Virus record (IMG/VR): IMGVR_UViG_3300023214_000231
Coordinates: 1-57,570 of that record
Length of the DNA stretch: 57,570 nt
Source of the DNA: a virus
Lineage: Duplodnaviria; Caudoviricetes
Direction: 5' to 3' (one strand)
In this document: in pieces, positions 2,656-56,514 of the stretch
Layout: every line of letters begins with the position of its first letter
Numbering within the stretch: position 1 is the first letter of the stretch
Notes under the pieces: generated by a model
What the model was told of the DNA's origin: nothing
Databases searched by the model: none
Seen by the model: the letters and a program-made list of their open reading frames with translations, nothing else
Translations under genes and position numbers: made by a program

Positions 2656-3510
2656 TCAGCGAGCGGTCAGGTCTGCGATCGCGTCCATGGCAGCCGAGCG
2701 TCGGCGTTCGGCGAGGCCGGCGACCTCGGCATCGGAGAGCCAGGGGCGAGCCGCGGCGATATGGGGATCGAAGTGCGACCCGGGCTGGATCGCTTCCACG
2801 AGAGCCGGGAGAACCTCATCGAGCCGGACGGGCACCTGATACCGCGACACCAGCGAGAAGGCCGTCAACTGCACCCCGAAGTCGTGGCCGACCAACGCGA
2901 CCTCCAGCGAGTCGAAGATGCGAAGCTCGGACCCGGGTGGCGTCGCGCCGGCATGCCACGCCTCAACGATTAGAGCAAGGGCGAGCCGGCGAACATGCTC
3001 CTCCGGGTGCGAGGCCCGAACGAACTCAACCAACTCGACGTCCTGCTCAGACAGAACACCGGTCGTCTCGAAGCGGTCGAGCGTGAGCATGACGAACGAT
3101 TCGGCGGCAACCGGATCCGACATGGAATGCACGAGCGGAGCAGACAGCGCAGCGTCGCAGAGATCCTGACAGCCGAGGTTTTGGTTAGCGCCACAGCCGT
3201 TGTCGGAGCAACAGCCATAGCAACGAGAAGTGCTCGCCACGAGCTTCGAACAATCCTCGCAGTTGGCGCACCTGCCGTGAAAACAATCGTCGGCGGTGAT
3301 GGCGGCAGAGCCGTCGGGCAGAGAATCAACCGCGCCGCCACCAGCCCCGAACCCATCAAGGTTCTGGACGACCCGCGGATCGTGCTTCTCTCGCTCCCAT
3401 TGGTCGGGGCCGAGAACTGCCGCCTGCACCACAGCGCCGGTCGAGAGCACAAAGGCGGCGACCATCAACACCCCGCAGGGGTTGGAATAGAACCATCTGA
3501 GCATTCGCAT
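2656..3510 (-). CDS. Putative secreted cysteine-rich protein (moron-like)
   Basis: N-terminal hydrophobic signal-like segment (VQA|AV), 10-Cys cluster, helical C-terminus; AGGAG RBS; flanked by terminators. Confidence 0.65.
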   Translation of the reverse strand: MRMLRWFYSNPCGVLMVAAFVLSTGAVVQAAVLGPDQWEREKHDPRVVQNLDGFGAGGGAVDSLPDGSAAITADDCFHGRCANCEDCSKLVASTSRCYGCCSDNGCGANQNLGCQDLCDAALSAPLVHSMSDPVAAESFVMLTLDRFETTGVLSEQDVELVEFVRASHPEEHVRRLALALIVEAWHAGATPPGSELRIFDSLEVALVGHDFGVQLTAFSLVSRYQVPVRLDEVLPALVEAIQPGSHFDPHIAAARPWLSDAEVAGLAERRRSAAMDAIADLTAR

Positions 3511-3584
3511 TTCGATCTCCTATCGGGCAGGCCGCGAGCCGGCCAACGCCCCAAGGGTAAAGAAACACCGTCGGATACGCAACC

Positions 3585-3638
3585 AAAAAGACGCCGCGGC
3601 GACCAAATCGGGCTTCACAGGTCGCCAGGCGGCCTTTT
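3585..3638 (-). terminator. Rho-independent terminator ending the tail operon (possibly bidirectional)
   Basis: GGCCGCCTGGCGACC...GGTCGCCGCGGCGTC then TTTTT on the minus strand; T-run also on the plus side. Confidence 0.65.
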
Positions 3639-3655
3639 CGCGGAGCCGGCGAGGA

Positions 3656-3994
3656 TCAGTGCGGCCGATGCAGCCAGGTCCGCACGCCGATGACCAGGAT
3701 GCCGATCAGCCCGACCAACACGGTAGTCAGCAGCGTCCAGGCGGCTCGCTTCTTGATCTGGTCCACGCTTTCTCGCCACTCGCGGAGCCGGGCGAAGTCC
3801 TGCTGGATCAGCACCGGGCTCTGGTGGTCGAGACCGAACCCGGTCATCATCTCCTGCACGACCGCACGAGCGATCTGCCGGACCTTTTCCTCTTCCAGCC
3901 GCTGGACCCGCTGGTCATGCGCAGCGACGGCCTCCGACACGAGGGCACGAAGCTCCTCCTTGGTGACCTGGACCGATTCGGATTCGTCTGCCAT
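3656..3994 (-). CDS. Coiled-coil protein with C-terminal TM (holin-like or lysis accessory candidate)
   Basis: MADESESVQV...coiled coil...AAWTLLTTVLVGLIGILVIGV; lies directly after the tail tip gene. Confidence 0.6.
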   Translation of the reverse strand: MADESESVQVTKEELRALVSEAVAAHDQRVQRLEEEKVRQIARAVVQEMMTGFGLDHQSPVLIQQDFARLREWRESVDQIKKRAAWTLLTTVLVGLIGILVIGVRTWLHRPH

Positions 3995-4002
3995 GACCTG
4001 CC

Positions 4003-6858
4003 TCAGATTCGGAGCGGAGCGACGTAGCCGGTGGACGAAGGGGGGTCGATCACAAGCAGCGCGAACACCGCGTCGCCATCCACGCCGGTGTGCCGGAAGT
4101 CTATCGAGTCGCCGGCGGTGACACCGGCGAGGGTTCCGCTGGACCCACCGGAACTGATCACGGTGGAATAGCCCCCACCGTTGATCTGCGCTTCGACGAT
4201 CCCTCCATTCAGCAGGTCGGCGAAGATATCGAACGCATAGCTCCCCGAATCGGGGGCGGTGAAGTTGCCCACCTGGAGGTTGTCGAGTCGCTGGACGAAC
4301 GTCTTGCCGGCCTGGGTCCCGGTCAGCGACGTGGTATGGACGACCGACCGGCCGGAGATCACAGAGCCGTCCACGGTGTGTCGGACCTCGAAGGTCCACT
4401 CGATCGAAGACGGATTCGCATTGAATTCCCAGATCAGATTCGCCCGTGAGAAGTCGAGCGGGCCAGCGACCGCGGACGCCCACGCCCCAGTGACCGTCGA
4501 TCCGGCGTCAGGATTCGCCGTCACGCGATACTCGGTCGTATTGGCCCCAGGGAAGTCCGCCGGCAAGGACGACTCGTCGTCGTGCTTGGCGACCTCGTCG
4601 CCTAGGCGGAAGTCCCGGCGGACAAAGCCGATCCTCGCGCCACGGCCAGAGAACGGGATCCCGCTTTGCGAGAGCCCGAAGTCGATCGAGGCGGGGAAGT
4701 CGGACCCGTTCCAGGTCACCTGGGCGGGCGGATACGGCGAATTGAAGCGGTCCTCCAGAGTGACGGTGTCCGAATAAGCACTGGCTCCAGCCAAGCGGAT
4801 CGAGCCCAGCGCCTCGGTGATGATCCGCCGAGCGCCGGAGGCGAACACGGTCTCGGTCAGATTGCCACCGGCCGACAGGACATAGACCGCATCTCCAGAC
4901 GAATGAGCGGCGGGGACGGTATCGAGGAACCCGCGATACCCGACGTCGACGCGGATCGAAGTGCCGAGGTCCGTGACCGACTCGACCCCGATGATCTCGT
5001 CACCGATCAAGATCAACTGAGCGAGGTTACTGCCGACCTCGCCGGACGATACATCCTCAAGGGCGGCGAGGATCTCAGACATAGCCGAAGCCCCCGCGAC
5101 GATCTCAAAGGTGACCGCAGACGACCCGCCAGAGATCGCCAGCGCCGAATCAAGCTCGCCTTGCACGAGGAAGGCGGAGGCCGTCCCGTCCACGTTTCCG
5201 TTGACATCGGTCAAGTCATAGACCAGGGCCCCATCGCCCTTGTTGCGGGCACCGAACCACAAGCGGGGGAACAGGGCCGGAGAGTCGGGATCCCGCTCCA
5301 CGAACGCACGCGGGGCCTCGATGATCACGGCCTCGGGCGGGTTGTCGGCGTTGTAAGCCTCAAGCACCGCGACCGGGGGCGTCCACTCGCCGGCATCGCC
5401 CGCTGTATTGGAGGACTGGCCCAAGGCGAAGATATTCTCGACCAAGTCGAGCGTAATCCGCCCATCAAGAAGGGTGTTGAAGTTGATCCTGGTGACGCGG
5501 AACTCTAGGCCCACGATGCCGAGGGCCTCGCTCGACCATGTCACGACGTCGGTCGGATTGACCACCCACGCCTGGCGGTTGACCACGAGCTTCGCGGAGG
5601 CGAGCGGATAGCTGAACGTGAGCAGGTCCCGGGCGGCGAGTTGGTTTGCCAGCGCCTCGTTCTTCACGCCCGTGTAATTCACGCTCCGGCTCACAACGGT
5701 GCCGCCGCGCTGGGTGATGTTGCCGAGGTCTTGCTCGCGGCCGTAGCTGTCGGCGTACTCGCGCGCCCTCGATTGAAACGGCGTCAGCACCTGATTCGCC
5801 GTGTCGTCGAACGACGCACGAGCGAAACGCTGGACCTCAAGCACGTTGGACTCGTCGAGAGCAAGCACCGAGGTGTCAGATTCGCGGGCGAGGTTGATTG
5901 TCCACAGCCCGGTGGACCGATCCTGAAAGAGCACACCGTCGATCTGCCGCTCGATATTGCGGAGAAGCTCGCCGGCCTCGATCTCGGTGTCCTGGGCGTA
6001 GCTGAACCCATTTTCCTCGGAAAAGAGCGTCGCGCCAGCCGACTGAAAGTTAGAGACATTGATCTTTCCCAATGTCTGCCGCATGCCCCACTCCTGATTG
6101 AGCAGGATCTCCGCGATCGCGCTCACCGGATTGAGGTCCTTGCCGCCATTGACTCGGTTGTTGCCTCCCAGGCCGACCGGATCGGGCATCCGCTGGACCT
6201 CGAACCACCACGGATCGATCTGCGGCGAGGTGCCGAGGTTGACCCGCTCCAGCAGCGCGTAGCCAGTCCCCGTGTACCGCGGTGTCTTGTTGTTCGTCAG
6301 CGCCTGCTGCGCTCGGAGATAGGCCGGAATCGACTGGGTGCGGGAGCCGGGGCGGAAGGTGACCGTGCCCGAGATCCCGCCCTTGCCGTTGTCCTCGCCA
6401 CCGAGGAAGTCGTCGTTGGCAAATGAAACCGAGCCCTCCGACAGCCCGCTCGCGCCGAGCGGATTCGAACCATCCGAATTGGCGAACTCCTTCTCGCCGA
6501 CAAACACACGCAGGAACTTGAGCGGGTTCGTTGTGTCGTCGTCCGAGCCACGGCAGACACCCATCTGGACGCCGAGCTTGTACCGAAACCCGACGATCAC
6601 CTTCTTGCTCGACCACAGGTTCGTCTTGACCCTCTCGGTGATCGCCTCGGGCACAAGGTCGCCATGCCAGACGACGTTCGGTCCCTTGACCAGCGTTGTG
6701 CCCCAGACGAGCGGGATCACACGCCCTTCGGTCGCCGTCGGGAACTGGAACTGCCCAAGCCCCGCCGGGCGGGCGTTCTCGATATCCGGCCCGGGCTGCA
6801 AAAACTGAGACAGAGCAAAGCTGGCTGCGAACAACAGCAGCGTGAACCAGATCGCCAT
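4003..6858 (-). CDS. Tail tip / central fibre-hub protein (YuA/GTA-like putative tail protein)
   Basis: 951 aa; FPTATEGRVIPLVWGT..GPNVVWHGD N-terminus, NPVSAIAEILLNQEWG and RGFLDTVPAAHSSG motifs typical of this tail family. Confidence 0.85.
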   Translation of the reverse strand: MAIWFTLLLFAASFALSQFLQPGPDIENARPAGLGQFQFPTATEGRVIPLVWGTTLVKGPNVVWHGDLVPEAITERVKTNLWSSKKVIVGFRYKLGVQMGVCRGSDDDTTNPLKFLRVFVGEKEFANSDGSNPLGASGLSEGSVSFANDDFLGGEDNGKGGISGTVTFRPGSRTQSIPAYLRAQQALTNNKTPRYTGTGYALLERVNLGTSPQIDPWWFEVQRMPDPVGLGGNNRVNGGKDLNPVSAIAEILLNQEWGMRQTLGKINVSNFQSAGATLFSEENGFSYAQDTEIEAGELLRNIERQIDGVLFQDRSTGLWTINLARESDTSVLALDESNVLEVQRFARASFDDTANQVLTPFQSRAREYADSYGREQDLGNITQRGGTVVSRSVNYTGVKNEALANQLAARDLLTFSYPLASAKLVVNRQAWVVNPTDVVTWSSEALGIVGLEFRVTRINFNTLLDGRITLDLVENIFALGQSSNTAGDAGEWTPPVAVLEAYNADNPPEAVIIEAPRAFVERDPDSPALFPRLWFGARNKGDGALVYDLTDVNGNVDGTASAFLVQGELDSALAISGGSSAVTFEIVAGASAMSEILAALEDVSSGEVGSNLAQLILIGDEIIGVESVTDLGTSIRVDVGYRGFLDTVPAAHSSGDAVYVLSAGGNLTETVFASGARRIITEALGSIRLAGASAYSDTVTLEDRFNSPYPPAQVTWNGSDFPASIDFGLSQSGIPFSGRGARIGFVRRDFRLGDEVAKHDDESSLPADFPGANTTEYRVTANPDAGSTVTGAWASAVAGPLDFSRANLIWEFNANPSSIEWTFEVRHTVDGSVISGRSVVHTTSLTGTQAGKTFVQRLDNLQVGNFTAPDSGSYAFDIFADLLNGGIVEAQINGGGYSTVISSGGSSGTLAGVTAGDSIDFRHTGVDGDAVFALLVIDPPSSTGYVAPLRI

Positions 6859-30323: not shown

Positions 30324-30697
30324 CCGCCGCCGCCCGAGGCATGCCGGCTCTTTCGTGTGCGCTCCAGGTCCCGCATGAGGTCGCGCAGGGCCTCGACGCC
30401 GAGCCTCGCACACTCGGACGGGTCGAACGTGGACCCGAAGTTCATGGCGAGGTGCTCGGCGAGGCCGCCCGAGACGATCGCCACCTGCCGCTCAAGGTCT
30501 GGCGGAGACGACTCGATGTCCTTTGACGCAATGCGGGGACACCATCGCTGACCCAGGCGAACCGGCTTGGACCCGTAGCACTTGACGGTCCAGAACCAGG
30601 TCCCGTTGGCGCGGGCGTGCAACTCGATGCGGACCTTGGGCTCGGGCAGCGACGGCGCGAACTCGGGCTCTGGGTTCAAAACGAACTTGTCACCCAT
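30320..30697 (-). CDS. Hypothetical protein
   Basis: MGDKFVLNPE... overlaps both neighbours in operon fashion. Confidence 0.6.
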   Translation of the reverse strand: MGDKFVLNPEPEFAPSLPEPKVRIELHARANGTWFWTVKCYGSKPVRLGQRWCPRIASKDIESSPPDLERQVAIVSGGLAEHLAMNFGSTFDPSECARLGVEALRDLMRDLERTRKSRHASGGGG

Positions 30698-31298
30698 TGC
30701 ATAACTCGCTTTCCCCAAGGTCCTTCGGCGGGTCGAGTTCGAACCCGACCGCCTCCATGCCGAACCTCTCCGCCGCGCGGCAGAGGGAGCCAGACCCAGC
30801 GAACGGGTCGAGGAAAAGCCCGCCCGGCTTAATCCACGGCCCAACGGACCATGACGCGACCGAGTCGGGGAGCGTTGCTCGCCGTCCGCCCGAGACAATC
30901 GCCTCGGTGATGTGGTCGGGGATCTGCGAGGTCTCCGATCTCGCGCGGCCCTTGCGAAACACGGTGGCAATCACCGTCGAATATGCCCAGCCGCCGGGGG
31001 ACACGCGGGTCTTCACCTGCGGCTTACACCACGAGCCAACCCGGACCGGCTCCACCACACCCCGAAGGGCATCAACCATGTAGGTGACCGACCGCCAGGA
31101 CGACGCGCTGTAGACGACCATCCACGAGTCGCGGGCCAGGGCGCGAGCGCACTCGCGGAGCACGACGGCGACGGTGGAGGTGATCTGGTGCTCGGAGACC
31201 GCGCCGCCGAATGCATACGGCGGATCAGTGACGATGAGGTCCGGAGACCGATCAAACTGCGTGATGAGGTCGAGCGCGTCGCCCTTATGGATAACCAT
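30690..31298 (-). CDS. Short N6-A/N4-C DNA methyltransferase (beta class)
   Basis: IVTDPPY before FLDPFAGSGS. Confidence 0.85.
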   Translation of the reverse strand: MVIHKGDALDLITQFDRSPDLIVTDPPYAFGGAVSEHQITSTVAVVLRECARALARDSWMVVYSASSWRSVTYMVDALRGVVEPVRVGSWCKPQVKTRVSPGGWAYSTVIATVFRKGRARSETSQIPDHITEAIVSGGRRATLPDSVASWSVGPWIKPGGLFLDPFAGSGSLCRAAERFGMEAVGFELDPPKDLGESELCNG

Positions 31299-33020: not shown

Positions 33021-33626
33021 TCACACCGATCCCCTGGCAGGCTGAGACCGCTTCCAATCCGCATAGAGCTCGTCCAGAACGTACTGGCACGCCTTCTGCT
33101 GGTGCCGGCCCATCCACTCGAGGATGGTCAGCCCGTTGCAGTGGTCGAACTCGTGCTGCCAGACCCGAGCGAGCAACCCCTGGGCCCGCTGGCGGTGGTA
33201 GTTGCCATCCAAGCCCTGGAACGCCAGCGTCACAGTGTCATGCCGCAGGATCGGCGCCTGGACGCCAGGGAAGCTCAGGCACCCCTCCTGAAGCGTTCGC
33301 TTCCCAAGCGGGTGCTGAAGCGAAGGATTGAGATACACCTCGACGCCATCGGTAGTCCGCCGGACGCCCTCGACGTCGCGGTCGTCTTTCAGGGCCCGGC
33401 CGACGCGGGCGACGAACAGGCGGAGCGGGACACCGACCTGGATTGCGGCGATTCCCAGGCCCTCGTGCTCGTCCATGATCTCGGTCATTCGGCCAACCAG
33501 GGGCGTGATCTGCTCGCGAAGCTCGGCAGTCACCGGCATAGATCGCACCCGGAGGATCGGATCCGGATACAAGCGGAGCCGCAGCGAGGCCGGGTCCGGT
33601 ATCGAAAACTCATGCCGTAGCGTCAC
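33021..33626 (-). CDS. def: Peptide deformylase
   Basis: All three motifs present: GLGIAAIQVG, EGCLS, HEFDH; also YPDPILR. Confidence 0.93.
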   Translation of the reverse strand: MTLRHEFSIPDPASLRLRLYPDPILRVRSMPVTAELREQITPLVGRMTEIMDEHEGLGIAAIQVGVPLRLFVARVGRALKDDRDVEGVRRTTDGVEVYLNPSLQHPLGKRTLQEGCLSFPGVQAPILRHDTVTLAFQGLDGNYHRQRAQGLLARVWQHEFDHCNGLTILEWMGRHQQKACQYVLDELYADWKRSQPARGSV

Positions 33627-35005
33627 GGTGAACCCCCCGAGGATGAGCCAGACTTCGGCGAGGGTTCCGGGGGTTGGGAGGGCTTTGTGCGGTGTTCGGC
33701 AGACTGGTCGGGGCTGATGCGCTCCGATGCGACCGATGCAAATGGCTTGCCGGACGACTCAAGCACCGCCTCCTGGCGGGTGTAGTTCTGCCAGCGACGG
33801 ACGATCAGATCGACGTACCTCGGGTCAAGCTCCAGGGCGAGGCAGACCCGGCCCGTTCGCTGGCTCGCGATGATCGTCGTGCTCGAGCCGCAGAACGGCT
33901 CATAGACCGCCTGCCCGAGGCTGGAGTTGTTCCGTATCGGACGCTCCATGCACTCGACCGGCTTCTGGGTCCCGTGACCGGTGTCGTTCGCTCGGTGGGC
34001 GATGAACCACACCGTCGACTGCTTCCGGTCGCCACCCCAGCCGCCAGACTCGCCGGCACGAACGACGTACTGCGCGGTCTCGTGCCCATACTCGGATTCC
34101 CGAGCGGCGTCGAAGCACGGCTCGTGCTGAACGTGGTAGTGCCCCCGAGAGATGGCGAAGCGGTTCTTCACCCAGACGATCTGCGAGCGGATCTGGAACC
34201 CAGTCGCGGCGAGCGACTCGGCGACGATGTGGGCCATGGTGCCGGCGTGCCAGACGTAGGCGACCGCGCCGGGGAACAGCTCCCACGCCTCACGCCAGTC
34301 CGCCCGGTCGTCGTTCATGACCTTGCCCTCGGCGACCTGCCCCTTCTTCGCCAGGCCCGAGCGGACGCGATGTGAGGGGTCGTAGTTCACGCCGTAGGGC
34401 GGATCAGTCACCATGAGCGGAGGGCGAGCGCCACCTAAGCAGCGATCGACAAACTCGGGGACCGTGGCGTCCCCGCAGACGAGGCGGTGAGGGCCCAGCA
34501 ACCAACAATCGCCCATGCGGGAGATTGCGTCGGGCCCTAGCGGGGGCGTCTCGTCGGGGTCCGTGTGGCCCTCCTGGCCGGCGTGAGCCAACAGCGAGGA
34601 AAGCTCCTCCTGGCTGAAGCCGGTGAGCCCGAGATCGAAGCCGGCATCCTTGAGCGCCCACAACTCGCCGGCGAGAACCTCCTCGTCCCAGCCGGCGTTC
34701 TCAGCGAGCTTGTTGTCGGCCAGGACGTACGCGCGGACCTGCTCCTCGGTGAGGTCGCCGAGCATGATGGTCGGCACCTCTTCGAGGCCGATCCGCTTGG
34801 CGGCCTCGAGGCGAGCATGGCCGGCGACGATCGTCAGATCGTCCTGCACGAGGATGGGATTGGTCCACCCGTACTCGCGGATGGACTCGACGACCTGAGC
34901 GATCTGCTCATCCGAGTGCGTACGGGCGTTGAGCCCATACGGATGAACATCGCCGATCGGTCGGTAGATCACCTCCAACCGCGGTGAAGCGGACGAATCT
35001 GTCAT
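33623..35005 (-). CDS. ParB-like N-terminal domain fused to an adenine/N4-C DNA methyltransferase
   Basis: NARTHSDEQI..SIREYGWTNPILV..IVAGHARL; TDPPY; HGTQKPVE; YEPFCGSST. Confidence 0.92.
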   Translation of the reverse strand: MTDSSASPRLEVIYRPIGDVHPYGLNARTHSDEQIAQVVESIREYGWTNPILVQDDLTIVAGHARLEAAKRIGLEEVPTIMLGDLTEEQVRAYVLADNKLAENAGWDEEVLAGELWALKDAGFDLGLTGFSQEELSSLLAHAGQEGHTDPDETPPLGPDAISRMGDCWLLGPHRLVCGDATVPEFVDRCLGGARPPLMVTDPPYGVNYDPSHRVRSGLAKKGQVAEGKVMNDDRADWREAWELFPGAVAYVWHAGTMAHIVAESLAATGFQIRSQIVWVKNRFAISRGHYHVQHEPCFDAARESEYGHETAQYVVRAGESGGWGGDRKQSTVWFIAHRANDTGHGTQKPVECMERPIRNNSSLGQAVYEPFCGSSTTIIASQRTGRVCLALELDPRYVDLIVRRWQNYTRQEAVLESSGKPFASVASERISPDQSAEHRTKPSQPPEPSPKSGSSSGGSP

Positions 35006-35591: not shown

Positions 35592-36053
35592 CTACTCGGG
35601 CATCATCAAGACGCCATTAGCGGCGACCACGATCCGATCCTCGAAGATCGAGGCGGACGATCGAATCTCGGCCATGATCTGCTTGATGGTCGCCCAGGGC
35701 ACCACCTGCTTATCGCCGTTCTTGTCCTCGAATGAGAACTCGCCGGCGTAGGCGAAACGGGTTGTCGCGCTCGGCGAACACGCGGCGTGCAGGGCGACGT
35801 ACTTTTTCGCTGGCTCGCAAGCCACAACGAGCTTTGCGCCCTGCCCAGCAACACCCATCTCAAGCATCTGGCCGGACTCATCTCTGCGAAGGCCACATTT
35901 TTCATCGACGAAAACCGGGCGGTCCTCTCGCGGATGAATCCAGCACGTTGCCGACTGGGCGCTGAGATCCATATCGACGGACAAGACCGGCCTGCCCTCA
36001 AACTCGACGCCGGTCGCAAAGAACTCGTTGGCGTTCTTGAGCGTGATGATCAC
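35592..36053 (-). CDS. Hypothetical protein
   Basis: GTGA-coupled start MIITLKNANEFF; C-terminal FAYAGEFSF..VPWATIKQIM motif. Confidence 0.6.
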   Translation of the reverse strand: MIITLKNANEFFATGVEFEGRPVLSVDMDLSAQSATCWIHPREDRPVFVDEKCGLRRDESGQMLEMGVAGQGAKLVVACEPAKKYVALHAACSPSATTRFAYAGEFSFEDKNGDKQVVPWATIKQIMAEIRSSASIFEDRIVVAANGVLMMPE

Positions 36054-36319
36054 GGCTTCCACCACACACAGACATCCCCGAGCACAAACCACGAGACGCC
36101 GCTCCACTTGTCGTGCTCGAACTCCAAAACGGATTCGCCCGAAGCGAATACGAAGGCGCGGCCCGGGATCTTCGTCATCGGCGAGGCATAAACCGACGCG
36201 GACGGAAGCGCGGACCAGGGCCGGCTGGTCCTGACCGCCTTCGGGTTGATCGGCAGGCACGCGATGAGGCCGTTGCCCGAAGGCACAAGCAAGGCGAGAG
36301 ACGGGCTGTCGGCGGGCAT
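36050..36319 (-). CDS. Hypothetical protein
   Basis: GGAGG RBS then MPADSPSLALL..., immediately after the RNA locus. Confidence 0.6.
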   Translation of the reverse strand: MPADSPSLALLVPSGNGLIACLPINPKAVRTSRPWSALPSASVYASPMTKIPGRAFVFASGESVLEFEHDKWSGVSWFVLGDVCVWWKP

Positions 36320-36340
36320 GAGACCTCCAGGGATGGGAAA

Positions 36341-36600
36341 TAGCGGGCACAGGATTCGAACCTGCGGCGGCGGCATTGCCGGCTGCCCGAAGGCAGCGAG
36401 CGGAGTTGGTTCAATGCCCGGACACCGGTTACCCAGCGCCAGAGCCCTCGGAGCGCCCAAACCACCGCACGACCTAGGGCTACCCAGGCGGGACGCGGTC
36501 ACCTCGGCGGCAAACCTTGTCGCCCGAAGGCGAAGCCCGAGGCCGGCGGTTAGGCCGGGCTCGAGACGGAAGAGTCGGTGCCTGCGAACGGCACCACCGG
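36341..36600 (-). ncRNA. Candidate structured ncRNA ending in a tRNA-type T-arm
   Basis: Two C(UUCG)G hairpins, further stems, and GCAGG-TTCGAAT-CCTGT followed by GCCCGCTA; no complete acceptor partner found. Confidence 0.5.
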
Positions 36601-36604
36601 TGAA

Positions 36605-36716
36605 CGCGGGGGGGAGGAATCGAACCTCCCCGCCTTTGCGTCGCATCATTTGGGCCCAGCCAGACCGGACCGGTCCGAATCTGGCCTTCGTGCGACAGGC
36701 GGCCGTGGTCCCCCGC
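36605..36716 (-). ncRNA. tRNA-like RNA lacking a D-arm, with a long branched arm
   Basis: Perfect 7-bp acceptor GCGGGGG/CCCCCGC, T-arm GGAGG-TTCGATT-CCTCC, helices CCGCCT/AGGCGG, GTCGCA/TGCGAC and GCCAGA/TCTGGC. Confidence 0.6.
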
Positions 36717-36862
36717 AGCGGGGCCGTCGATCCCAGTACGCCGAGTTTGGATCCGCGGAAACGGAGCGTTCAAGGCATGCTGAGCGGCCCGGTGACGTCA
36801 CCCCCGGGTGCTCTGGCCCCAACTGCCCTCAAGGGGCCGCCCCAAGGGGGCTTCGAAGCGAA

Positions 36863-36935
36863 TTGCGCGGGGGGGACTCGAACCCCCGACCTCTGGAATA
36901 TGAACCCAGCGAGCTACCAACTGCTCCACCACGCG
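36863..36935 (-). tRNA. tRNA-Met(CAT), initiator type, no encoded CCA
   Basis: CGCGTGGTGGAGCAGTTGGTAGCTCGCTGGGTTCATATTCCAGAGGTCGGGGGTTCGAGTCCCCCCCGCGCAA folds as a cloverleaf with C1:A72 mismatch. Confidence 0.9.
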
Positions 36936-36940
36936 GCGTC

Positions 36941-36969
36941 ACAGTACCATCGGATCCGCAGGTAGTCCA
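36941..36969 (-). promoter_or_regulatory. Sigma70-like promoter of the tRNA/ncRNA locus
   Basis: TGGACT-N17-TACTGT with extended -10, 5 nt upstream of the tRNA 5' end. Confidence 0.55.
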
Positions 36970-36970
36970 G

Positions 36971-36986
36971 TGTTCCACGGGGAACG
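36971..36986. promoter_or_regulatory. parS-like palindrome
   Basis: TGTTCCACGGGGAACG, 14/16 to TGTTCCACGTGGAACA; intergenic. Confidence 0.4.
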
Positions 36987-37036
36987 CCCCGGCGCTCCCC
37001 TGTAAAATCGCACATAAACCATTATCGGTCATAGAC

Positions 37037-37324
37037 TTAGCCACCAGCGAGGGCGTCGGACGCGGCGGCGCGGACCTCTTCGCAGAACCGCTCGGCGTCG
37101 GCGGCCGGCAGGTGAAGCTCGTCCACGAGCACGGGGCCCTCGGCGTCCTCCTCGGCCTCCGCGATGATCTCCCGGGCACGCCAGTCGGCGACACCAAGCT
37201 CGAGCAACGCGTCTAGCGAGAGACCCCGCCGGGGCCGGTCCAGGTACCTCCGCACGAGAACGCACGGGACCGGATCACCATCGCAGGCGGAGATCTCCAG
37301 CCGATCACCCTTGGCCGTCCTCAC
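37037..37324 (-). CDS. Hypothetical protein
   Basis: GTGA-coupled start with GGAGG RBS: MRTAKGDRLEISAC... Confidence 0.6.
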   Translation of the reverse strand: MRTAKGDRLEISACDGDPVPCVLVRRYLDRPRRGLSLDALLELGVADWRAREIIAEAEEDAEGPVLVDELHLPAADAERFCEEVRAAASDALAGG

Positions 37325-40792: not shown

Positions 40793-41007
40793 ATAAACTC
40801 GTCCTCTTCGTCTTCAGAGGGACCGGCGGTCATGTTCCCGCACTCGGGACACTCCTGGCACTCCTCGTCCACAATGGACGCGGGCCAGACAGAAACGTGC
40901 TCATGGGCGCACATCCGACATACCAGAGCGCCGCTGCACCACTCGGTGCCATCGGGGCACGGCTCGCTCGGCGGATGATCTCCGCCGCAGCCGTCACACA
41001 TTGCCAT
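40789..41007 (-). CDS. Small Zn-finger protein
   Basis: AAGGAG RBS; CDGC..H, CRMC, CPECG. Confidence 0.65.
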   Translation of the reverse strand: MAMCDGCGGDHPPSEPCPDGTEWCSGALVCRMCAHEHVSVWPASIVDEECQECPECGNMTAGPSEDEEDEFI

Positions 41008-41758
41008 CGGATAGCTCCTTTGCAACCGTTCTGAGTCTCTGATTCGCCTTCTTGACATACTCGGCCGACCGCTCCAGGCCCACGAACCGCCGGCCCATGC
41101 GAAGGCACTCGACGCCGAGCGAGCCAGAGCCGGCGAAGCCATCGACCACGAGGTCGCCGCGGGCGCTCCACCCGAGCACGATTCGCTGAAGCAACTCGGG
41201 AGGCAACTGGGCGGGGTGCCAGCCGACGCGGTCCGTGCTCGTCCCCTGGAGCCTGCGAAACCGCCAGACCCGTCCAGGGACACGCCCTTGCGGGTCGGCG
41301 CGCTTGTCGCCCATGTCCTGCCGCACCGAGCGAACCCGGATCGCGTCCATGTCTCGATACACCGGGCCGCGGTCATTTGCATGGACGACGATGAGCCGAA
41401 AGTCCGAGGTGAGGTCGTGGCGCTGGTACTGCGCGAACGCCTCCTCCCAGACGATGAGATACAGCCTGGGACCGATCGCGGACTCCATCATCGGGCCAAG
41501 CCACTCGAGATGCCCCGCTGGCACCACCCACCAGCAGGTCCCGCCGGGCGCAAGCACCCTCGCATGATGGCGGAGGGCCTTCTGGCAGAGCAGGCGATAC
41601 TTTGAATCGGGCAGCCGGTCGCCCGAGCCGTCGCCCGCGTAATCAACCCCGATGTTGTACGGGGGATCGGCGAGAACCACACGCGCCCCACCGGGCGAGT
41701 CTGGGACCTGCGGCGCAGACAGGTAGTCGTGCCGGCGAACCTCAGCCTCGGGCGGCAT
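40994..41758 (-). CDS. N6-A/N4-C DNA methyltransferase (beta class)
   Basis: ADPPYNIG, HPAQLPPELL, VVDGFAGSGS. Confidence 0.9.
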   Translation of the reverse strand: MPPEAEVRRHDYLSAPQVPDSPGGARVVLADPPYNIGVDYAGDGSGDRLPDSKYRLLCQKALRHHARVLAPGGTCWWVVPAGHLEWLGPMMESAIGPRLYLIVWEEAFAQYQRHDLTSDFRLIVVHANDRGPVYRDMDAIRVRSVRQDMGDKRADPQGRVPGRVWRFRRLQGTSTDRVGWHPAQLPPELLQRIVLGWSARGDLVVDGFAGSGSLGVECLRMGRRFVGLERSAEYVKKANQRLRTVAKELSDGNV

Positions 41759-42137
41759 TGGCGATCTCCCTCGCGTTGAAGCCAACCACATCGACCACGA
41801 GATCGAGCGCGTCAAAGTCTTCGGAAACCACCTGGAACCGGCCAGACTTCTCGATCAGCGACGTCTCGGATCTGGCGAACGCGACGACCGCCGCCGTCTT
41901 GGAAACGCCGTAGACGGGAAAGCCATCGCCCTCACGCTCGGAATCGAAAGCCTCCCGGGCCAGCGCCTCGATGGTGAAGCGGCCCTCGTCGTCGGCGACG
42001 CGCTCGATGGCAGCGGCGATCGCCTCGACGTCGGCGAACGAAACGCGATGGACGTACCCAACGCCGCTGCGAGGCACGACGTGCCGGCAGAGTTTGCGCG
42101 ATCCATCGTCAACAGTGAAGAACTCATGTCGCGGCAT
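41742..42137 (-). CDS. Conserved hypothetical (wHTH-like), resembling Phycisphaerae proteins
   Basis: LCRHVVPRSGVGYVHRVS..VEAIAAAIE..FTIEALA pattern recalled from planctomycete hypotheticals; unverified. Confidence 0.6.
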   Translation of the reverse strand: MPRHEFFTVDDGSRKLCRHVVPRSGVGYVHRVSFADVEAIAAAIERVADDEGRFTIEALAREAFDSEREGDGFPVYGVSKTAAVVAFARSETSLIEKSGRFQVVSEDFDALDLVVDVVGFNAREIANAARG

Positions 42138-55031: not shown

Positions 55032-55210
55032 CACATCACCCCTTCCATAAGAATCACGCCGCCGACGGCGATGGCGAGGCCGCACGGGCTCACGGCCCAC
55101 CGCCACCGGCTCGCGCCGCGTCTCACGGCCTCGGCCCACGCGCCCACGCCCATGCCCCACATGGTGCAGCCCGCGGCCACCAGCGCCAGTCCGATCGTGA
55201 AGTCGGTCAT
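55031..55210 (-). CDS. 59-aa 2-TM membrane protein
   Basis: Hand translation MTDFTIGLALVAAGCTMWGMGVGAW...CGLAIAVGGVILMEGVM*; coupled at both ends. Confidence 0.6.
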   Translation of the reverse strand: MTDFTIGLALVAAGCTMWGMGVGAWAEAVRRGASRWRWAVSPCGLAIAVGGVILMEGVM

Positions 55211-55242
55211 CGTGTAGCCTCCGGTTCCAGGTTGCTCGCGGC
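55207..55242 (-). repeat. Boundary repeat family C, copy 1
   Basis: GCCGCGAGCAACCTGGAACCGGAGGCTACACGATGA; compare 56511-56546 and 56717-56740. Confidence 0.75.
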
Positions 55243-56514
55243 CGTGCCGTCCGGCGCCAGGCCCAGCGTCTCCATCGCGGCGCCGATGAAGTCGGTGGCG
55301 ACGGGCAGGCAGATCGCGTTGCCGATGCCGTGCAGGGCGGCGGCGCGGTTGATGACGCGGATGTTCGTGCGGCCGTGGTCTTTCAGGCGGAACGCCGGGC
55401 CGTCTACTTCGCTGCGAGGTGATACAGCAATGCCGGCGGGAGGCCCATCAACCAGAGGGAATGCGCCGGGTTCAGACGAGATCCGGCGAACCCGCTCAAC
55501 GGATCCTCCCGAAGCGGTCGGCTCGACGCAGCGGACGAGGAGGCAATCGTCCCAGCTTGTCTGGGCAGTCGGTCCGTGCGGACCCTCACCGAGCCGTCCG
55601 GGTTCGTCGCCAGCAGCGCCAAGCCCGGACTGTCGTTCCAGTCGCGGCTTACCGGCGTCACCCACGGCGCGATCGCCAGACACTGGCCGTTGAGCAGCAG
55701 CTCGTGGGCCCGGTCGCCCGAGCGTTTCACGTTGCCCGCCTCGCCGTCGCTGGCCTTCGGGCTCTGCCACGGCGTCAGACACCACACCGAGTCCACGATC
55801 GTCACGCCGAAGGTCGCCGGCGGAGCCCCCGGCCGCCGCTTGGCCGTTGCGTTCCTCGCCCCGGTCCCGTCCGCGCGCACCGGAGTTCCCCACGGCGTCA
55901 GGCAGTAAATCACGTCCGTCATCGTCGCCGACTTCGTGAACTCCACCGCGTCCGGCCGCCGGTTGCAGGTCAGCGTGCGGCCCGCCTTGCGATCGCTGCT
56001 CAGCGGCGTCGGCCACGGCGACAAAGAACAGCCGGTGCCGTCGGTGCGGCGCGCCGACGCACGCCGCTGGAAGATCGCAGCACCCGACGGCGTATCCAGC
56101 TCGCTCCAGGTCAGATCGAACTCGGGCGAACCATGCCGCTCCAGCCGTGCCCGCAACCTGTTCTCCAAAGACCACTGGAGGGTGGCAGAGGGCGATGAGG
56201 CGGTAAACAACGGGCCATAAATGTCGGTCATCCTCGAATCCCTTGCGCCGCCCGGCGCTGCTGAACGGCTGGCACGGGCACGAGGCGGTCCACACCGGCA
56301 CATCCACGGGCCAACCCGCGATCGCCAGGGCCAGCGGCCACACACCGACGCCGGCGAACATGTGGACCTGGTCCGCGTCGAGGCTGGCGGCCTCGATGTC
56401 GTTGATGTCGGCGCCGCGCACCTCGCCGGGCGGGATCATGCGAGCCCGTTCCAGGTTGCCCAGCGCCTCGATCGAGCGCGGGTCGAAGTCGGTGTAGATC
56501 GCCCGACCGCTCAC
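55207..56514 (-). CDS. C5-cytosine DNA methyltransferase, large polypeptide
   Basis: Motif I MFAGVG, IV SCPCQPFS, VI GEQV, VIII PHRRHRLFFVA, X GIGNAI; motif IX absent from this frame. Confidence 0.88.
   Translation of the reverse strand: MSGRAIYTDFDPRSIEALGNLERARMIPPGEVRGADINDIEAASLDADQVHMFAGVGVWPLALAIAGWPVDVPVWTASCPCQPFSSAGRRKGFEDDRHLWPVVYRLIALCHPPVVFGEQVAGTAGAAWFARVRSDLERAGYAVGCCDLPAACVGAPHRRHRLFFVAVADAAEQRSQGGPHADLQPAAGRGGVHEVGDDDGRDLLPDAVGNSGARGRDRGEERNGQAAAGGSAGDLRRDDRGLGVVSDAVAEPEGQRRRGGQRETLGRPGPRAAAQRPVSGDRAVGDAGKPRLERQSGLGAAGDEPGRLGEGPHGPTAQTSWDDCLLVRCVEPTASGGSVERVRRISSEPGAFPLVDGPPAGIAVSPRSEVDGPAFRLKDHGRTNIRVINRAAALHGIGNAICLPVATDFIGAAMETLGLAPDGTAASNLEPEATR
55404..56231 (-). CDS. Nested alternative-frame C5-MTase small polypeptide (EcoHK31I-beta-like)
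   Basis: GAGG-ATG start MTDIYG; four PWx(T/S)P repeats; motif IX-like RLNPAHSLWLMGLP. Confidence 0.75.
   Translation of the reverse strand: MTDIYGPLFTASSPSATLQWSLENRLRARLERHGSPEFDLTWSELDTPSGAAIFQRRASARRTDGTGCSLSPWPTPLSSDRKAGRTLTCNRRPDAVEFTKSATMTDVIYCLTPWGTPVRADGTGARNATAKRRPGAPPATFGVTIVDSVWCLTPWQSPKASDGEAGNVKRSGDRAHELLLNGQCLAIAPWVTPVSRDWNDSPGLALLATNPDGSVRVRTDRLPRQAGTIASSSAASSRPLREDPLSGFAGSRLNPAHSLWLMGLPPALLYHLAAK

Follow-up and report, generated by a model that had tools for sequence, protein, structure and literature searches.

The window analysed here is the whole stretch of 57,570 base pairs (bp) of the IMG/VR virus record IMGVR_UViG_3300023214_000231, whose completeness is estimated at 89%. 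On its minus strand, between an upstream open reading frame (ORF) that terminates at 37037 and a gene for a small protein, lies a promoter-led non-coding interval in which an initiator-type methionine transfer RNA (tRNA-Met) gene is followed by two further modules with a tRNA-like T-arm, referred to below as elements 2 and 3. The original prediction had seen in this interval a candidate novel system of structured RNAs. The features of the locus, all on the minus strand and given in nucleotides (nt), are the following.

36972-36985, minus strand: 14-nt palindrome GTTCCCCGTGGAAC, a possible operator, upstream of the promoter
36941-36969, minus strand: weak sigma-70-like promoter, with -35 TGGACT (36964-36969), a 17-nt spacer and -10 TACTGT (36941-36946)
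36863-36935, minus strand: initiator-type tRNA-Met (CAU), ARAGORN anticodon cat, Rfam RF00005 59.1 bits (cut-off 29)
36717-36862, minus strand: spacer 1, 146 nt, GC-rich, with the palindrome GGTGACGTCACC at 36791-36802
36605-36716, minus strand: element 2, with a possible 5' strand GCGGGGG (36710-36716), a 7-nt linker and a 73-nt irregular hairpin (36630-36702)
36605-36629, minus strand: 3' part of element 2, with the T-arm GGAGG-TTCGATT-CCTCC (36613-36629), the 3' strand CCCCCGC (36606-36612) and G36605
36422-36604, minus strand: spacer 2, 183 nt, with the hairpins GGTGCC-GTTCGCA-GGCACC (36577-36595) and TCGCC-TTCG-GGCGA (36520-36533)
36342-36421, minus strand: element 3, 80 nt and thus tRNA-sized, with a possible 5' strand CCGGGCA (36415-36421) and without a D-stem
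36382-36397, minus strand: hairpin of element 3, GCTGCC-TTCG-GGCAGC, where the anticodon arm would be, followed by a 16-nt variable stretch
36342-36365, minus strand: 3' part of element 3, with the T-arm GCAGG-TTCGAAT-CCTGT (36349-36365), an overlapping 3' strand (36343-36349) and T36342
36050-36328, minus strand: next gene, with a GGAGG ribosome-binding site (RBS), N5 and ATG at 36317-36319, encoding a protein of 89 amino acids (aa), family unassigned

The absence of a credible coding sequence from the interval, as put forward in the original prediction, is borne out by composition as well as by homology searches. No third-position periodicity of the guanine-plus-cytosine (GC) content is detected in any frame over about 36297-37075, the longest such stretch in the window, and the 10 ORFs overlapping the interval have a GC content of 0.55-0.76 at the third codon position (GC3) and of 0.60-0.73 at the second (GC2), compared to 0.81-0.86 and 0.45-0.56, respectively, in four reference genes. 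Besides, the four longest of these ORFs have no Pfam or PHROG match, and the tblastn comparison of 19 stop-to-stop segments of at least 25 aa with the related loci gave only six matches, all at chance level (E 0.009-0.041), while a control protein matched in 140 related loci. Taken together, these results make a protein gene across the interval unlikely, and no conserved protein spanning the region was found with Pfam, PHROG or tblastn. The next gene, whose start region lies about 21 nt past element 3, has a GC3 of 0.84, and its 89-aa product is without Pfam or PHROG match. As for microdiversity, the stretch is carried in identical form, without variants, by four sequencing runs of one study, two of which are possibly its source, and no difference is seen inside the elements; all the runs listed for the stretch are DNA runs.

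ARAGORN and Rfam agree on the tRNA-Met at 36863-36935 as the sole RNA gene called in the window, and on our own covariance model, built from 26 tRNA-Met genes, it reaches 81.9 bits. The CCA end is not encoded. In E. coli, initiator tRNAs are distinguished by an unpaired C x A at positions 1:72, an A11:U24 pair and an anticodon stem that is closed by three G-C pairs in succession. In the window, the 1:72 pair is the non-standard C1 x A72 in the RF00005 alignment, the D-stem GAGC/GCUC gives A11:U24 when the alignment is read by eye, and the anticodon stem CUGGG/UCCAG comprises G29-C41, G30-C40 and G31-U39, that is to say two G-C pairs and a wobble, not three G-C pairs. The anticodon loop reads UUCAUAU, and the loops of the corresponding tRNAs in two other loci, L011 and L027, likewise open with UUCAUA. 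The claim of an initiator tRNA is thereby confirmed by the ARAGORN call and by a Rfam score well above the cut-off; the same ARAGORN run leaves elements 2 and 3 uncalled.

The two elements that follow can be assigned, through their matches, to the 3' ends of methionine tRNA genes. When a T-arm motif with the loop TTCRANN and a G-C-closed stem of 5 bp was sought on both strands of the whole window, three matches were obtained, at 36887, 36629 and 36365, all on the minus strand and separated by 258 and 264 nt, while a mean of 0.30 is expected from 200 simulated windows. Since 80 of the 94 instances of this motif in 1.16 Mb of related phage loci are located inside called tRNAs, the two extra T-arms are real tRNA-derived sequence, and the second and third T-arms of the original prediction stand far above chance. 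Both modules also hold the GGTTCRANYCC motif (GGTTCGATTCC and GGTTCGAATCC).

Searches for the closest sequences elsewhere point to the same origin. The T-arm 21-mer of element 2 occurs exactly in 21 IMG/VR loci, inside a tRNA-Met(CAT) called by ARAGORN in 17 of them; the other four are L090, L011, one locus with a Glu call and one with a Gly call. In L090 (694-784, minus strand), the match belongs to a phage tRNA-Met with an 18-nt D-loop insertion, which is missed by ARAGORN and scores 41.5 bits on the Rfam model and 69.9 bits on our own. The T-arm and acceptor pattern of element 3, with two positions left degenerate, is found at no fewer than 152 places in at least 134 GTDB loci. Among the 152 matches listed, 145 lie inside tRNA-Met(CAT) genes, mostly of Actinomycetota, and the remaining seven consist of five that are interrupted by masking or a contig end and of two orphan fragments (L244 and L352), which begin exactly at the T-stem as element 3 does. 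The G that the window carries at the first acceptor position of element 3 is present in none of these 152 listed matches. When the exact T-arm plus acceptor string of either element was scanned against IMG/VR, no locus was retrieved.

On the tRNA-Met covariance model, element 3 scores 21.7 bits (E about 3e-5) and element 2 scores 16.1 bits (E about 7.5e-4), the alignment being restricted to the acceptor and the T-arm with 34 D/anticodon positions skipped. The fragments accordingly extend from the variable loop or T-stem through the discriminator, and both modules resemble tRNA-Met genes solely in their last 25-30 nt; the model moreover selects nearer 5' partner strands than those originally proposed. 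In the RF00005 search, element 2 has no match at E up to 10, and the best that element 3 achieves on the Rfam tRNA-Sec model is 18.6 bits, below the cut-off of 47. Neither Rfam nor ARAGORN finds in either element a full cloverleaf above cut-off with a 7-nt anticodon loop, and elements 2 and 3 are unable to decode. They represent two sequence types, unlike each other and unlike the intact gene, with which their sole shared repeat is an 11-nt, C-rich one. The D/anticodon part of the tRNA gives weak colinear matches to element 2 (z 1.56) and to element 3 (z 1.98, with GCTCGCTG in common), neither of which is significant. To a large extent, the parts of the array thus match decayed tRNA pseudogenes.

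The second element had been described as possessing a perfect acceptor and T-arm. The T-arm is indeed canonical and a 7-8 bp acceptor stem can be drawn, but when the upstream 241 nt are shuffled with dinucleotides preserved, 351 of 2000 shuffles (17.5%) contain a 7-nt perfect complement to the 3' strand of element 2, so that the acceptor partner remains within chance; for element 3, a 6-bp partner in a shifted register is obtained in 954 of 2000 shuffles (48%). Caution is required in this respect, given that DNA of 65% GC yields "perfect" acceptor stems and hairpins by chance. The multi-hairpin spacer does not hold up as a structured RNA, since the folding z-score is +0.71 for spacer 1 (151 of 200 shuffles being as stable) and -0.82 for the part of spacer 2 at 36426-36575. 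Element 3 has a z of -1.29, and for the whole 528 nt, with a z of -0.56, stability does not exceed that of shuffled sequence. The core of the spacer 1 palindrome is matched once for 2.77 expected matches, which is within chance, and no likeness between spacers 1 and 2 is detected (z 0.57).

Regarding the portrayal of the last element as UUCG-rich, TTCG is enriched, with nine occurrences in 522 nt placing the region in the top 3% of windows, but the enrichment is mild. Three of the four C(UUCG)G hairpins of the minus strand fall within 36282-36529, and the stretches 36505-36531 and 36368-36394 form a direct repeat of 27 nt with 74% identity. The 12-nt sequence TGCCCGAAGGCA (plus strand) was also seen in two exact copies, one in the UUCG hairpin of element 3 (36384-36395) and one inside the next ORF (36274-36285). 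A Rfam scan of the region returned no fitting family beyond the tRNA. The notion of a novel structured RNA system is therefore not sustained, as the modules are tRNA-Met 3' ends, the 5' partners and spacer hairpins are within chance, and no Rfam family is recognised. What is supported is a promoter-led non-coding stretch in which a real initiator tRNA is accompanied by two more modules of T-arm and acceptor.

The phage carrying this locus has nearly all its genes on the minus strand, and its content includes a terminase, a portal, a tape measure, tail genes, a number of DNA methylases, a peptide deformylase and a fusion of ParB with a methylase. Its portal shares about 49% identity with the portals of YuA-like siphophages that infect Pseudomonas, Xanthomonas and Stenotrophomonas, which makes a GC-rich proteobacterium the probable host. 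The peptide deformylase gene (PF01327, E 8e-38) is located at 33021-33626 on the minus strand, 3 kb downstream of the initiator tRNA and in the same orientation, and two translation-initiation functions are thus found on one phage. Four DNA methyltransferase genes were also noticed, all on the minus strand (30690-31298, 33623-35005, 40994-41815 and 55207-56514), of which three are of the N6/N4 type, including one joined to a ParB N-terminal domain, and the fourth is of the C5 type; four such genes in a single 57-kb phage suggest a heavy investment in anti-restriction.

Relatives of the ParB-methylase number 429 in IMG/VR, 80 of which were kept (top identity 66%), and at least 576 in metagenome contigs, where 80 were kept as well and the top identity among the matches listed is 58%; those of TerL amount to 38 loci with a top identity of 51%. 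None of these relatives is near enough for an analysis of covariation. No IMG/VR relative of the adjoining 265-aa ORF was found. At the nucleotide level, blastn of the region against all the fetched loci recovers only the tRNA and one 27-nt T-arm, and among 50,697 phage records the tRNA is the sole part to be matched, in 29 of them. Of the cultured phages, those whose initiator tRNA (tRNA-fMet) is most similar are Stenotrophomonas vB_Sm_QDWS359 and Xanthomonas Xoo-sp2, in which the tRNA follows TerL in a different context and no such tRNA relics are annotated.

Synteny around the locus is shared with two IMG/VR contigs, L021 and L011, the latter being a complete sequence of 60,742 bp with terminal repeats (100% complete). 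The protein of 208 aa encoded upstream is 48% identical in L021 and 45% in L011, and the palindrome, the promoter and the downstream ParB-methylase are common to all. The promoter of the window occupies the same position as those of these relatives, TTGACA-17-TAGTAT in L011 (near-consensus) and TTGACC-17-TAAGGT in L021 (good), but a consensus scan gives no site at 36941-36969, so that the promoter claim is upheld by position and not by consensus. In the window, the promoter ends 5 nt ahead of the first tRNA base, and this distance is 5-6 nt in the three phages alike. The window promoter can be aligned with the promoter region of L011 (CGGATACGATGGTAGTATG), and that contig was the only match to a pattern combining promoter and tRNA start. 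A GTTCC-N4-GGAAC palindrome precedes the promoter in all three phages, GTTCCACATGGAAC being found upstream of the equivalent promoters in L011 and L021; it has a single instance in the window, and at least one instance in 14 of 100 shuffles.

Downstream of the promoter, the three phages diverge. In L011, the order is tRNA-Met, a small zinc-ribbon-like ORF, an aberrant tRNA and, as seen by eye, a terminator-like hairpin with a T run. The aberrant tRNA (4650-4718) has perfect acceptor, D and T arms together with an anticodon loop 3 nt short, for which ARAGORN reports a 2-nt "anticodon", and it scores 48.2 bits on the Rfam model and 35.1 bits on our own. In L021, the place of tRNA-fMet (3833-4006 region) retains only the first seven bases, CGCGGGG, followed by an 11-nt stretch and by CCCCGCAACC, the remnant being joined to sequence like the tRNA trailer of the window; CGCGGGG...CCCCGCAACC is either what a deletion has left or a micro-helix of acceptor type. 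Directly after it comes a tRNA (44.2 bits) whose acceptor, D and T arms are intact and whose anticodon region carries an insert of 79 nt. The tRNA locus is syntenic yet unstable in L021 and L011. Local alignment of the whole region between the window and L021 gives a z of about 5, but this signal vanishes without the T-arm (z 0.98, -0.05 and 0.10, for a coding-region control at 3.35), so that neither orthology of the elements nor compensatory acceptor changes can be claimed.

Several other observations were made in these and further loci. About 2 kb upstream of its tRNA-Met, L011 carries at 1916-2175 two tandem modules that each open with AAGCTGAGA, the first being YrlA-like, with a T-arm, a capped acceptor hairpin and a D-arm (27.8 bits, E 0.0045, below cut-off), and the second consisting of a T-arm and an 8-bp capped acceptor hairpin, with a partial cyano_tmRNA match of 23.5 bits. 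L021 shows a second GCGGGG...CCCCGC hairpin at about 4201-4228, just ahead of the RBS of the next gene, as well as some 480 nt of non-coding sequence upstream of the promoter (3300-3780), whose repeated CGCACAC-type and CCAGTTTCGTGATTGG-type motifs look like iterons or operator arrays. In L027, another relative, the abiF RNA motif is matched just under the threshold (31.9 bits for a cut-off of 37, E 0.029) at 3785-3836, between the tRNA-Met and the ParB-methylase gene. Finally, orphan tRNA tails following a phage tRNA-Met occur a second time in the unrelated IMG/VR contig L102: its 654-1251 region contains a tRNA-Met and then two T-arm modules within 600 nt (1107-1133 and 1179-1251), ending in ...CACCA and ...GCCA, neither of which is called by ARAGORN and the second of which scores 21.1 bits on the tRNA-Met model.

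The reading that we tentatively favour, with a confidence falling a little short of even, is that of a recombination-prone tRNA locus holding a live initiator tRNA and two tRNA-Met relics, probably co-transcribed and possibly cut by RNase P and RNase Z. The interval would be the leader of a phage transcription unit, in which the weak but position-conserved promoter would drive the initiator tRNA-Met gene, and elements 2 and 3 would be what gene replacement, partial duplication or integration-type recombination has left behind at a reshuffled tRNA locus. Since no terminator is predicted before the next gene (36000-37300 being covered), the relics, the tRNA and the downstream messenger RNA (mRNA) are probably parts of one transcript. 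In this transcript, the 3' ends of the relics would pair with nearby 5' partner strands into acceptor/T-arm minihelices, which the host RNase P and 3' tRNA endonuclease would cut, as happens at plant mitochondrial t-elements; such cuts would release the tRNA and shorten the leader of the next mRNA to about 21 nt. As a T-arm on any 6-7 bp helix is what RNase P and RNase Z require, which has been shown for the t-elements and acceptor-like stem-loops of plant mitochondria (PMC1920247) and for the YrlA of Mycobacterium smegmatis (PMC4201824), the relics may act as punctuation. The descent of both elements from the 3' ends of tRNA-Met genes is shown, and co-transcription with cutting at tRNA-like sites can reasonably be inferred.

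Nevertheless, several points weigh against this reading, the first being that the processing of the relics is itself inferred. Both T-arms are flawless, with 5/5 pairs and canonical loops, on unrecognisable bodies, a combination which fits fragments that never had a body but also selection on the T-arm. The regular spacing of the three T-arms is left unexplained, and each of the three related phages contains aberrant tRNA bodies whose stems are intact. The whole of element 2 folds somewhat better than its shuffles, with a z of -1.89, only 7 of 200 shuffles being as stable. Besides, neither the window nor the records of the two relatives contain an integrase or resolvase to which such scars could be attributed.

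Two other explanations have to be considered, which we rate as equally possible and each of which we regard as unlikely, though far from negligible. According to the first, the modules are selected tRNA mimics, that is, non-decoding initiator-type acceptor/T-arm bodies that would be freed from the transcript and act in trans, either as decoys for a defence enzyme or toxin attacking acceptor ends or tRNA-fMet, or as sponges for an enzyme that handles initiator tRNA. The perfection of the T-arms, above chance, their regular spacing, the fold of element 2 and the tRNA-Met type of all three modules would be in line with such a role. So would the fact that, at the same promoter position in three phages, the anticodon region is wrecked differently each time, being replaced by a 73-nt arm and a UUCG cap in the window, enlarged by the 79-nt insert in L021 and shortened in the loop by 3 nt in L011. 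The phage-encoded peptide deformylase indicates an investment in translation initiation, and phage tRNAs are described as countering tRNA-targeting defences (PMC10264068). However, acceptor pairing is not above chance, the likeness between the window and L021 is gone once the T-arm is left out, and L021 has apparently lost its tRNA-fMet, which speaks for decay at the locus. A detection bias is also at work, given that only relics with intact stems get noticed, and no partner protein or defence target has been identified. The more specific proposal that a fast-evolving set of anticodon-less initiator-type tRNA bodies, kept in this phage lineage downstream of a conserved promoter and an initiator tRNA and freed by the RNase P and 3' processing enzymes of the host, would soak up a defence toxin or enzyme without a risk of mistranslation is, in our opinion, doubtful.

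According to the second explanation, the modules are inert scars, neutral leftovers that neither form minihelices nor undergo processing, the 520 nt being a plain untranslated leader. This would account for 5' partners that are within chance and for the preference of the covariance model for other, closer partners, as well as for spacers and a whole leader that fold like shuffles and for the lack of conservation in relatives. Yet phage genomes are compact, and nowhere else in the window does coding periodicity fail over so long a stretch; the T-arms are undamaged, and a T-arm on any 6-7 bp helix belongs to a substrate type known for RNase P and RNase Z from the accounts in PMC1920247 and PMC4201824.

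Far less probable is that the tRNA 3' fragments are attachment sites (attP) of a temperate phage integrating into a host tRNA-Met gene, since, although their extent from variable loop or T-stem to discriminator is typical of att-type tRNA fragments as described in PMC9897764, neither the tyrosine integrase PF00589 nor the serine recombinase PF00239 is found in any of the three records (window, L011 and L021), one of which is 100% complete, two different fragments stand beside an intact tRNA, and the G of element 3 at a degenerate position is in no tRNA-Met 3' end among the 152 GTDB matches listed; at 89% completeness, the window could lack an integrase gene. The slimmest chance is given to a described tRNA-like family, be it a standard or two-piece transfer-messenger RNA (tmRNA), a YrlA-type Y RNA or another Rfam family, for although the layout of element 2 (acceptor, single-stranded linker, long helix, T-arm) is like the tRNA-like domain of tmRNA and L011 has its YrlA-like modules with T-arm and capped acceptor hairpin, ARAGORN finds no tmRNA in the window, the cyano_tmRNA match of 10.7 bits covers 17 nt of T-loop only, element 2 reads G3-C70 and not the G3-U70 of tmRNA (the tag frame having had no systematic search), the YrlA match (RF02553, 14.3 bits for a cut-off of 69) overlaps the real tRNA, the parts are in normal, unpermuted order, and no TROVE/Ro60 domain is found in the window record, in L021 or in the complete L011 genome.

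The significance of the locus depends on which of these explanations applies. If the ordinary one is true, the locus is a clear example of phage tRNA gene turnover, with loss or disruption at the same site in two relatives. Should the relics be processed, the tRNA-like punctuation of mRNA known from organelles would extend to phage operons. The decoy role would be of greatest import, since tRNA-directed defences and phage counter-measures form an active field. The interest is modest unless maintenance of the relics is demonstrated, be it by RNA-end data or by closer relatives.

Among known systems, the tRNA gene cluster of phage T4 yields stable small non-tRNA RNAs, which are matured from the same precursors as the tRNAs. 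The YrlA of M. smegmatis is a substrate of RNase P and acquires a CCA end, as reported by Chen et al. 2014 (PMC4201824), and the elements of the window resemble it in being tRNA-derived, non-decoding and endowed with a T-arm; unlike YrlA, they are not circularly permuted, are without a D-arm, score far under its cut-off and have no Ro60 gene nearby. The t-elements of plant mitochondria, sought by means of GGTTCRANYCC and cut by RNase P and RNase Z in the description of Forner et al. 2007 (PMC1920247), provide the model for how elements 2 and 3 may work, as the window modules combine the same T-arm motif with a possible acceptor-like helix, its partners being within chance, near an mRNA end; t-elements belong to another kingdom and to other enzymes, with ends mapped experimentally, whereas the window modules are known from sequence alone. 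Finally, tRNA gene fragments are presented by van der Gulik et al. 2023 (PMC9897764) as a common by-product of integration. The modules of the window depart from those fragments in residing in a phage in which no recombinase was found and in lying 258-264 nt apart instead of kilobases, and, as they differ in sequence from the 3' end of the intact gene, they are not simple att duplications. They agree with the fragments of that study in comprising the 3' tRNA part only, in following an intact gene of their own isotype and in being uncalled or low-scoring with tRNA finders. The features of this locus are real, but the known phenomenon of tRNA gene fragments accounts for most of them.

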